From: Candidatus Baldrarchaeota archaeon
GTDB taxonomy: Archaea > Asgardarchaeota > Baldrarchaeia > Baldrarchaeales > DXJG01
DNA: 32,000 nt
NCBI GenBank assembly: GCA_019056805.1
Contig: DXJG01000002.1
Span: 136,907-168,906 of the forward strand
Reading direction: 5' to 3'
Shown here: piece after piece, positions 16,581-26,479 of the stretch
How the letters are laid out: every line of letters starts with the position of its first letter
Numbering within the stretch: position 1 is the first letter of the stretch
The notes under the pieces: generated by a model
Told to the model about the DNA's origin: nothing
Seen by the model: only the letters and a program-made list of their open reading frames with translations
Database searches by the model: none
Translations under genes and position numbers: made by a program

Positions 16581-18265
16581 TCAGCATCTATTTCTTTTAT
16601 GCTTTAACGCTTCTCTGACGAAGGCAACATATATCGGAGACGGCCTATTAGGTCGACTCTTAAATTCAGGGTGAAACTGGACTCCTACAATCCATGCGTT
16701 ATTTGCAAGTTCTATTGCATTCACAATGTTACCCGTTTCATCATACGCTGAAATAACCAGATTTTTATTCTCTGCTTTTTCTGCATATTCTTTTATAATG
16801 TGATATCTGTGTCTAAATCTCTCCACAACTACTTCTTTTCCATAAGCTTCAAAAAGCTTAGTTCCCCTTTTTATGTAGATTTTATGGCCGCCCAACCGCA
16901 TGGTTCCACCTTTCGCTTCTATCTTACGTTGTTCTGGAAGCATATCAACTACGGGATGTGGTGTATTGGGATCTATCTCCGTGCTATTTGCATCTTTTAA
17001 TCCAAGCATTCTTCTACAAAATGCAATAAATAAAAGCTGAGCACCGAAACAAATTCCTAAAAACGGCTTTCCCTTAAGTATGGCATAGTCGGCTGTTGCA
17101 ATCATGCCCTCCACACCCCTCTTACCGAAACCAGGTGTAAGAAGAATACCGTCAAAATTATCCAACATACTTATTTTTTCCGGATTTTCTTCAAATACTT
17201 CTGTTTCAATCCATTCAAGTAACACTTTTACTCCTAGGTGTGCACCTGCATGTTTTAAAGCCTCATTTATTGAAATATAACTATCAATAATAGCTGTATA
17301 TTTGCCAGGCATTGCTATTTTTACGGTTTCGTTGTACGTTTTGAATTTTTCTACGACTTGTTTCCAGCTTTCAAGCGAAGGAGTACGATTTTGGAGATTT
17401 AAAATTCTAGATAAATATTCTCCAAGCCCCTGTTCCTCAAAAAGAAGCGGTAATTCGTAAATACAATCAGTATCAGGGTTTGAAATTACAGCTTCAACGG
17501 GTACATTACAATATAGACTAATTTTTTCTCTTATTTTTTGATCAAGAGGAATTTCAGCCCTACCAACAATAACATCAGGTTGAAGTCCCATGCCTTGGAG
17601 AACTTTAACACTATGTTGAGTAGGTTTTGTTTTGAGTTCTCTAACAGTCTTAAGGAATGGGAGAAGAGTAACATGTACTAATGCGGTATTTTCTCTAGGT
17701 TCTTCTAATCGAAATTGTCTTATAGCTTCGAGAAAAGGCATGGCTTCTATATCTCCTACAGTCCCCCCTACCTCAACAATCAATATATCTGGATTCTCTC
17801 TCTTAGCAACTTCCCTAATCCTGTTTTTTATTTCATCGGTAATATGTGGTATTATTTGAACAGTTTTACCAAGATATTCTCCAACTCTTTCACGAAGAAT
17901 AACCGATAAGTAAACCTGTCCACTAGTAATATTATTGCATGGATGAATATTTTTATCTAAAAATCTTTCATAAGTCCCAAAATCTTGATCAATTTCGGAT
18001 ATTCTAAATTTAAAACCATCAGCTGGTGTGAATTCCCAAACATCTTCAGTTACAAAAACCTCCCCATGTTCGATTGGATTAAGAGTACCTGGGTCAACAT
18101 TCAAATTCCCCCACGGCTAGAAATACTCTAGCCGCGTTAGGGGTCGATTTTTATAGCATCAACACTAAACCCTCTAAATTGGAAAAGTTTGGCAATCGAA
18201 GCAACAGTAACACCCTTACCAATACCAGACATAACTCCTCCTGTTATAAATATGTATTTTGTCAA
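16581..18265 (-). CDS. pyrG: CTP synthase, two exons (18265-18138 and 18105-16581), 550 aa after splicing
   Basis: Exon 1 from TTG 18265 (GAGGTG RBS): [42 protein letters not shown] plus UA; exon 2 U plus [18 protein letters not shown]..., [10 protein letters not shown], glutaminase FLGICFG and QFHPEF. The ORF track starts at 18104 and misses exon 1. Confidence 0.97.
18106..18137 (-). other. 32-nt bulge-helix-bulge (BHB) mRNA intron in pyrG
   Basis: Minus strand: UCGA-CCCC-UA|A-CGCGGCUAGA-GUAUU-UCUAGCCGUG-GGGG-AA|U-UUGA. 4-bp CCCC/GGGG central helix, two 3-nt bulges, 10-bp intron stem, 4-bp exon helix; splicing yields GAC CCC UAU UUG AAU (DPYLN). Confidence 0.93.
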
Positions 18266-24781: not shown

Positions 24782-26236
24782 TTAACCCTTGGTAACTCCC
24801 ATTGGAACCATTCTTGCTACGAGAGTAGCAATACCTAGTTTGTGACTAACTTTAACAACTCTGTCAATATCTTTATATGCACCTGGAGCTTCTTCTGCAA
24901 CTACCCTGATATTTGCAGCTCTAATTAATATTCCTCTTTGCTCCAAATCCTTTTTCACTGTAGAACCCCAATAACGTCGAGTGGCAGCAGCTCGTGATAA
25001 GTGTCGCCCTGCACCATGGGCAGTACTGCCAAAAGAGATCTTCATAGCCTGTTTTGCTCCAATTAGCAAATAACTAGCAGTACCCATACTTCCGGGAATC
25101 AGTACGGGTTGACCCATGCTTCTATAGTCAGCAGGAATATCTTTGTGTCCCGGTGGAAACGCCCTAGTAGCACCTTTTCTATGAACAAATACTTTAACCT
25201 TCTTTCCATCGACATCATGTTCCTCTAATTTCGCTATATTATGGGCTACATCATAAATCAAATGTAAATCTAAGTCTTCAGCATCTTTTCTGAATATTTT
25301 TTGAAGAGCTTCTCTTGTCCAATGAGTTATTAGTTGTCTATTTGCCCAAGCAAAATTAGCTGCGCACTGCATTGCTTGAAAATATTGTTCAGCTTCTTTG
25401 CTATTTGCTGGTGCACATGCCAATTCTCTATCTGGTAGTTTTATTCCATACTGGTGTACTGCTCTTTCCATAACTCTGAGATAATCAGAACATACCTGGT
25501 GACCAAAACCTCTAGAACCTGTATGAATCATAACAGTTACTTGTCCTTCTTCATATATACCAAGTTTCTTGGCTACTTGAGGATTATAAATCTTATCTAC
25601 ATACTGTATTTCGAGGAAATGGTTTCCACTTCCTAGAGTTCCAAGTTGTGGTCGTCCTCTTTGTTTAGCTCTTGAAGATACTACATCTGGATTCGCATTC
25701 GGCATTGCCCCTTCTTCTTCGCAATGTTTCCAATCCTCATCCCAACCATATCCCTGTTCAACAGCCCATTTTGCACCACCTTGCATTGCTTCATCCAGTT
25801 CGGCAGTTGATAGCCTTAACTTTCCAGTGCTTCCCACTCCGCTAGGAATATTTCTGAATAAAGCTTCCAGAAGTTGAGGTAAGATTTTACGTACCTCATC
25901 TTTTTTCAAATTTGTTCTTAGTAATCTTACACCACAATTAATGTCGTAACCCACTCCACCTGGTGAAATTACACCTGTTTCTAAATCACTTGCCGCTACT
26001 CCCCCTATTGGGAATCCGTATCCTTGATGTCCATCCGGAAGAACTATGCTATACTTGTAGACTCCCGGAAGACATGCAATGTTTGCTGCTTGTTCTAATG
26101 TTAAATCTGTTCTCATTTTTTCTAGTAAAAATTCATCTGCATAAATTCTCGCTGGTACACGCATGCAATTCTTGTAAGTTCGTGGTATTTCCCATACGAA
26201 TTCATCTATCTTTTCGATAGGCCCTCTATAACCCAT
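24782..26236 (-). CDS. rtcB: RNA-splicing ligase RtcB
   Basis: PDGHQGYGFPIGG, GVGYDINCGVR, GTLGSGNHFLE, HTGSRGFGH, YDVAHN, HRKGATRA, HGAGR, EEAPGAYK; start ATG 26236 after GGTGA. Confidence 0.97.
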   Translation of the reverse strand: MGYRGPIEKIDEFVWEIPRTYKNCMRVPARIYADEFLLEKMRTDLTLEQAANIACLPGVYKYSIVLPDGHQGYGFPIGGVAASDLETGVISPGGVGYDINCGVRLLRTNLKKDEVRKILPQLLEALFRNIPSGVGSTGKLRLSTAELDEAMQGGAKWAVEQGYGWDEDWKHCEEEGAMPNANPDVVSSRAKQRGRPQLGTLGSGNHFLEIQYVDKIYNPQVAKKLGIYEEGQVTVMIHTGSRGFGHQVCSDYLRVMERAVHQYGIKLPDRELACAPANSKEAEQYFQAMQCAANFAWANRQLITHWTREALQKIFRKDAEDLDLHLIYDVAHNIAKLEEHDVDGKKVKVFVHRKGATRAFPPGHKDIPADYRSMGQPVLIPGSMGTASYLLIGAKQAMKISFGSTAHGAGRHLSRAAATRRYWGSTVKKDLEQRGILIRAANIRVVAEEAPGAYKDIDRVVKVSHKLGIATLVARMVPMGVTKG

Positions 26237-26479
26237 TTTTTTCACCATGTTTAGGGAGACTTTCAAAATTTTTAAGTGTTTTTGGTACATGAGCATGAAT
26301 TTTGGTGTCTTATACCAAAATATTAGGTCCACTTACCGAGAAAATGAAGTCTTAACTAACTTGAGAACAATGTTCTACGATGTTCATAATAACTCTTTAA
26401 AGAACTTAAAATCAAGGTATCAATTTGAAGTTATTTCTTTGTATTATGACAAAAGTGATATTAGTATGACAAAGAAAGT

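Follow-up and report, generated by a model that had tools for sequence, protein, structure and literature searches.

A putative tRNA-type intron in the CTP synthase gene of an Asgard archaeon, one of several candidate mini-introns in its genome

The removal of introns from messenger RNA by proteins alone, independently of the spliceosome, is exemplified by the IRE1/RtcB splicing of HAC1/XBP1, in which the intron of XBP1 measures 26 nt and the ligase of metazoa is of the RtcB type. In archaea, pre-mRNA introns of the BHB type have been described for cbf5 (pseudouridine synthase) in the crenarchaeal orders Desulfurococcales and Sulfolobales (Watanabe 2002; Yoshinari 2006; Yokobori 2009, PMC2738675), and cbf5 is the only archaeal gene in which a BHB intron of the coding sequence has been confirmed, others having been predicted (PMC2738675). 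Here we describe an insert of 32 nt at positions 18137-18106 of a window from an Asgard archaeon, the window being the whole stretch of 32,000 nucleotides that was analysed, and we hold it highly likely, from the sequence comparisons set out below, that the insert is an archaeal BHB (tRNA-type) intron in the single CTP synthase (pyrG) pre-mRNA of this organism. A full-text literature search turned up neither a pyrG intron nor any BHB intron in an Asgard mRNA, and further publications may exist; pyrG would be a new host gene for BHB or tRNA-type introns in mRNA, a class already known from cbf5.

Layout of the pyrG locus and fold of the insert

A single copy of pyrG is present in the genome, which is 91% complete (assembly of 1.92 Mb in 18 contigs, 35% G+C), and the gene and its insert are laid out in the window as follows:

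18138..18265, minus strand: pyrG exon 1, with a TTG start at 18265, 42 codons to 18140, then U18139 and A18138 of a split Tyr codon
18106..18137, minus strand: putative BHB intron of 32 nt, comprising nt 3 of the 5' bulge, a 10-bp stem with a 5-nt loop, the GGGG strand, and nt 1-2 of the 3' bulge
16581..18105, minus strand: pyrG exon 2, from the U of the Tyr codon through LNVDPG... to the stop
18101..18147, minus strand: whole hBHBh' motif, with the UCGA/UUGA outer helix, the CCCC/GGGG central helix, the bulges UAA and AAU, and the intron stem
16584-18104 and 18140-18265, minus strand: the two intervals into which public gene calls split the gene

Exon 1 encodes the nucleotide-binding loop, its peptide running to ...AIKIDP before the UAA at 18139-18137, and exon 2, which is open in frame from 18104 to 16581, encodes the remainder of the synthetase domain together with the glutamine amidotransferase domain. 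The preliminary description of this DNA, which was made from the letters of the sequence, had placed exon 1 (42 codons plus UA) out of frame with the rest, and this is correct to the base. It had also predicted that cutting in the bulges would yield the motif D-P-Y-L-N and a protein of 550 aa, which agrees both with splicing in silico and with the continuity of the Pfam profile. The joined sequence reads GAC CCC UAU UUG AAU, restores KIDP-Y-LNVDPG, and has an open reading frame of 42 + 1 + 507 = 550 aa, the predicted junction in the spliced mRNA being ...GACCCCUA|UUUGAAU..., with CCCCUA|UUUGAAU at the joint. In Pfam CTP_synth_N, exon 1 covers profile positions 1-40 and exon 2 positions 42-265, so that the gap between the exons is a single position, which the split Tyr codon exactly fills. 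The class-I GATase profile is matched in exon 2, and the gene thus has both Pfam domains that define PyrG, with the loop in exon 1. The best match among solved CTP synthase structures has an E value of 5.5e-156, and the solved chains align to exon 2 from their residue 43-54 on, depending on the chain.

Public gene calls (NCBI, JGI, ENA, Logan) divide the gene into a CTP synthase of 507 or 465 aa without its N-terminus and a separate product of 31 to 52 aa, one of which is named, as a 42-aa 'hypothetical protein' of Baldrarchaeia archaeon. This N-terminally truncated call with a small companion product is the misannotation that the preliminary description had expected of annotation pipelines.

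When transcribed, the sequence around the break is predicted to fold into the following elements:

18147-18144 (UCGA) with 18104-18101 (UUGA), minus strand: outer exon-exon helix, 4 bp
18143-18140 (CCCC) with 18111-18108 (GGGG), minus strand: central helix, 4 bp
18139-18137, minus strand: 5' bulge UA|A, which doubles as an in-frame stop codon
18136-18127 with 18121-18112, minus strand: intron stem, 10 bp, with a 5-nt loop
18107-18105, minus strand: 3' bulge AA|U, on the strand opposite the 5' bulge

This is exactly the complete hBHBh' fold that had been proposed for the 32 nt, and RNAfold, applied to 66 nt around the break, returns it as the minimum-energy structure and again as the centroid. 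The predicted fold energy of -24.1 kcal/mol compares with -12.8 +/- 2.6 kcal/mol for shuffled sequences (z -4.4), none of the 200 shuffles being as stable. The arrangement is that of a canonical BHB, in which two 3-nt bulges lie on opposite strands, each 3' of its helix strand, with a helix of 4 bp between them, and it is flanked by an exon-exon helix h of 4 bp and by an intron stem h' of 10 bp. As known from solved EndA-RNA complexes, EndA cleaves after the second nucleotide of the bulge; since the bulges read UAA and AAU, the predicted mRNA is identical whether the cut follows bulge nucleotide 1 or 2. No Rfam family reached its gathering score on the window, ARAGORN found no tRNA there, and a search for copies of the intron stem elsewhere in the genome returned none, so that nothing points to a mobile repeat.

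Conservation of the insert and readings without splicing

One objection to an intron would be that the 32 nt are an assembly or sequencing artefact and absent from the real genome, and two circumstances might favour it, namely that the window derives from a metagenome-assembled genome and that one of the independent contigs (X4) breaks off within the insert without bridging it, which leaves a second contig (X3) as the sole independent bridge. X3, which comes from the metagenome of an independent study, spans the insert with identical sequence; two runs contain the stretch identically, although this DNA may derive from them; and no DNA joint without the insert was seen among the matching contigs. 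A further 27 loci from NCBI, ENA, JGI, and Logan, representing many samples, likewise have the insert at this codon, where it shows natural variation. We treat an artefact as practically excluded because many independent assemblies carry the insert.

Within the genus, the insert occupies the same codon in all 28 of the loci that were fetched, in six distinct variants of 31 or 32 nt. These loci include the three other species genomes of the genus and 22 loci obtained by exact look-ups of the exon 1 peptide, the latter drawn from NCBI, ENA, JGI, and Logan assemblies that represent many hydrothermal and subsurface samples; the congeneric public records carry the labels Candidatus Odinarchaeota or Candidatus Baldrarchaeia, and the relatives retrieved by the genome search are Asgard archaea. 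In 26 other Asgard genes (from one genome of the sister family and 25 genomes of other families) pyrG is unbroken at this site and reads KIDPY[LF]N[VI]D[PA]G. When 5.8 billion protein clusters were searched, all homologues of at least 91% identity proved to be truncated calls of 465 or 507 aa, the next match being full length at 72% identity, and no intron-less allele of the lineage was present among these clusters. Scanning metagenome contigs with exon 2 retrieved only relatives of at most 51% identity, which are of no use for the intron.

The six variants differ in a manner that follows the predicted structure. Nine inner pairs of the stem and the GGGG strand are invariant save for one G-U/A-U change, a C-G/U-G exchange is tolerated in the central helix, and the geometry of two 3-nt bulges around a 4-bp central helix holds throughout, whereas the loop is different in every variant (GUAUU, GGGAUUU, AUUCGC, UUUG, GUGAAU, and CUUG). 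One pair of the outer helix passes through C-G, U-G, and U-A and is an A.A mismatch in the commonest (L002-type) variant. Across the six variants 97% of cells are paired, as against 35-55% when the partner columns are slid. Aligning related pyrG genes, as had been suggested, confirmed the presence of the intron at the same codon in 28 of 28 loci but not the covariation of its stem, which among six variants is not statistically significant, only one pair changing on both sides and 230 or 276 of 500 shuffles reaching the observed score. The evolutionary support, as read from these sequences, is the contrast between a conserved stem and a hypervariable loop rather than covariation. When the codons are compared with those of an L002-type congener, 17 of the differences in exon 1 are synonymous and 3 are non-synonymous, the corresponding counts for exon 2 being 111 and 22; judged by these counts, both exons are under purifying selection. 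Furthermore, since the insert is 32 nt long here and 31 nt long in congeners, the frame offset between the exons varies by species, and only removal at the RNA level tolerates such variation.

Two observations on pyrG in other genomes deserve separate mention. In another Asgard family, pyrG of the genomes G031 (locus L028, about 1480-1510) and G021 (locus L029, about 597-627) carries an insert of 31 nt at a different site, DFGT-Y|ERF, the fold of which combines an outer helix of 4 bp with two bulges of 3 nt each and a central helix made up of 3 bp and a G.A mismatch; its BHB-constrained fold lies 3-5 kcal/mol above the minimum-energy fold, and the insert is probably an independent, relaxed BHB intron. 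An internal TAA in the pyrG match of a further genome (G013) was set aside, since the gene itself, an intact ORF of 514 aa, does not contain it.

Two readings would dispense with splicing. The gene could be split or decaying, producing a 42-aa peptide and, by a restart at TTG 18104, a protein of 507 aa, with the two pieces acting as non-covalent partners or representing a dying gene. Gene callers output exactly these two products, and a run of GGGGG directly upstream of TTG 18104 could mimic a ribosome-binding site; yet the G-run is spaced just 3 nt from the TTG, and the restart product would have neither the nucleotide-binding loop nor the conserved Tyr, despite deriving from the sole pyrG of the genome. 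The apparent purifying selection on both pieces also speaks against decay. A split gene, moreover, requires no BHB, and nevertheless the 10-bp stem and the 4-bp helix are kept in six variants as the loop drifts; nor does it account for six other inserts of the same geometry (see below), some of which combine a length that is a multiple of three with a stop. We consider a split or decaying gene very improbable.

Translational recoding, by which the ribosome would frameshift or hop over the insert in the manner of phage T4 gene 60 while the RNA stays uncut, draws on the presence of a stop right after the would-be take-off codon, followed by a stable hairpin, which superficially resembles the bypass signal of gene 60. 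Stops occur in all three frames, in or just after the insert, with a UAG inside the insert in the frame of exon 2, so that neither a frameshift nor read-through gives a full protein. In addition, there is no matching landing codon, the Tyr codon arising only by the joining of UA and U, and the shift needed would have to vary among species, as the insert measures 32 nt in this genome but 31 nt in congeners. The exact 3-4-3 geometry of the BHB would also be left unexplained, and we rate recoding as highly improbable.

Processing enzymes and further candidate mini-introns

The genome encodes the enzymes that removal of a BHB intron would call for, and they lie on the contig of pyrG:

24782..26332 of the window, minus strand: RtcB RNA ligase, the presumed exon joiner, about 7 kb from pyrG (Pfam RtcB, E 3.7e-183, at G000:C9:161691-162998)
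G000:C9:197884-198129, minus strand: EndA alpha-like
G000:C9:13779-14039, minus strand: EndA beta-like
G000:C9:28295-28720, plus strand: archease

The two EndA paralogues, of 184 aa (alpha) and 178 aa (beta), are separate genes, each matching both tRNA_int_endo_N and tRNA_int_endo, and with N- and C-terminal domains present they make up a gene set of the heterotetramer type; inspected by eye in translation, the 184-aa subunit looks catalytic. Asgard archaea have been described as having an (alpha-beta)2 EndA with an L1 loop that broadens specificity (PMC5829648). Of the only 31 tRNA genes that ARAGORN predicts in the genome, 22 are called with an intron, some of these calls being dubious (Stop and SeC anticodons). 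This suggests that the tRNA genes are heavily interrupted and partly undetected, as has been described for Asgard archaea (bioRxiv 10.64898/2026.10.13.758758).

Since the only CTP synthase gene of the genome is broken by an insert of the RNA shape cut by EndA, its mRNA very probably has to be spliced. The preliminary description had read the insert as a spliced BHB intron, and this reading gains support from its geometry, the restored frame and motif, its fixation across the genus, the constraint on both exons, and the enzyme genes, from which we infer cleavage, ligation, and a spliced mRNA. In the mechanism that we propose, the exon-intron junctions would pair into the hBHBh' motif after transcription, and a heterotetrameric (alpha-beta)2 EndA would cleave the two bulges, the 5' one at UA|A and the 3' one at AA|U, leaving a 2',3'-cyclic phosphate and a 5'-OH. 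RtcB, aided by archease, would then ligate the exons, and the intron would probably be circularised. The junction would complete the Tyr codon from UA and U and bring exon 2 into frame, allowing synthesis of the 550-aa enzyme with KIDPYLNVDPG. Translation of unspliced RNA would end at the UAA of the 5' bulge, which is a stop codon, and would yield only a 42-aa peptide. Archaeal translation is able to begin on nascent RNA, and some unspliced mRNA may be translated to this peptide.

The whole genome was scanned for BHB-compatible pairings whose removal fuses two otherwise interrupted open frames. When the strict motif was demanded as the minimum-energy fold, only 2 of 2,915 frame-restoring BHB candidates in the whole 1.92-Mb genome remained, namely those in pyrG and infB, and the same two again stood far apart from the other candidates under a softer energy criterion. 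Filtering by open frames only had proved too noisy (22,278 and then 351 hits), and usable lists came from the requirement for a minimum-energy BHB and, later, from a screen for stable hairpins combined with a closed exon 2 frame upstream. This second screen, for stable helix-bulge-stem hairpins, brought to six, in five genes, the number of further inserts that share this architecture and whose removal restores a conserved motif:

G000:C10:39163-39195, plus strand: insert of 33 nt in infB/aIF5B, with an in-frame UAG; LREAGGI|TQHIGA restored
G000:C6:44186-44213, minus strand: insert 1 of glyA, 28 nt, outer helix almost absent; LIASEN|IPSPAV restored
G000:C6:44097-44122, minus strand: insert 2 of glyA, 26 nt, about 60 nt from insert 1; NRYAE|GWPGERVYAG restored
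G000:C17:48225-48255, plus strand: insert of 31 nt in pcm; TISAP|HMVA restored
G000:C6:168431-168466, plus strand: insert of 36 nt in atpD; PPTR|MELL restored
G000:C10:32511-32551, plus strand: insert of 41 nt in rpoN; IPVR|CFTCGK restored

The infB insert has a canonical hBHBh' with a GGCA/UGCC central helix, the bulges UAA and AAA, and a 10-bp stem; glyA encodes serine hydroxymethyltransferase. All seven inserts, pyrG included, are 26 to 41 nt long, and each is placed in the first ~70 codons of its gene. Most of the remaining hits of the screen are junk frames, tRNA genes, or other RNA genes, and a candidate within purA (at about 19511 of the window) was rejected as a false positive. The cbf5 gene is uninterrupted in this genome.

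The preliminary description had called mRNA introns of this kind rare, which holds as far as confirmed cases go, these being limited to cbf5, but sits less easily with a genome in which pyrG is one of at least seven candidates. On balance we lean towards the view that in Asgard archaea mRNA splicing of the EndA/RtcB type is routine and genome-wide, with pyrG as one instance of it. If this is true, protein-only mRNA splicing would be common in the closest prokaryotic relatives of eukaryotes, and the yield of CTP synthase and other core enzymes could be tied to the capacity for tRNA splicing.

Significance and comparison with known systems

The pyrG insert is of wider interest as part of a set of candidate mini-introns that spans several genes of one Asgard genome. 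With it, an essential enzyme would rely on the tRNA-splicing pathway, making EndA/RtcB splicing of mRNA a putative part of core metabolism in this lineage, and protein-only mRNA splicing would be extended to the archaeal group nearest to eukaryotes, which would bear on the evolution of introns and splicing. There is also a practical consequence, as public calls lose the nucleotide-binding loop, and metabolic reconstructions and completeness estimates of Asgard genomes are distorted.

Four described systems invite comparison. Phage T4 gene 60 resembles pyrG in that a stop and, after it, a hairpin interrupt a coding sequence that otherwise continues, but bypassing in gene 60 requires a take-off codon with a matching landing codon and does not cut the RNA, whereas in pyrG the junction codon exists only after joining and the length of the gap is variable. 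The splicing of HAC1/XBP1 is similar to that proposed here in that an endonuclease cuts stem-loop structures, a short mRNA intron is removed, and the reading frame of the product is changed; it differs in depending on the kinase/RNase IRE1, on two 7-nt loops, and on regulation by ER stress, in place of a BHB of the EndA type. Archaeal pre-tRNA introns share with the pyrG insert the same hBHBh' motif, the (here predicted) cuts in the bulges, a similar range of lengths, and the enzymes, which are encoded in this genome, but the host RNA of the pyrG insert is an mRNA, with no tRNA body to aid folding or recognition, and its splicing would have to restore a reading frame in competition with translation of the precursor.

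The nearest counterpart is the intron of cbf5. Both are short BHB introns that interrupt a coding sequence, the EndA of their hosts is of the heterotetrameric (alpha-beta)2 type, and both introns are removed via the tRNA-splicing pathway, presumably so in the case of pyrG; both have a patchy, lineage-specific presence, and in both the gene is misannotated as split or frameshifted. The splicing of cbf5 has been confirmed by RT-PCR and in vitro cleavage, whereas that of pyrG is predicted from DNA sequence. The pyrG insert further differs in its host gene and in its phylum, being found in a Baldrarchaeia-labelled genus of the Asgard archaea, and, unlike the lone intron of cbf5, it would be one of at least seven in its genome.
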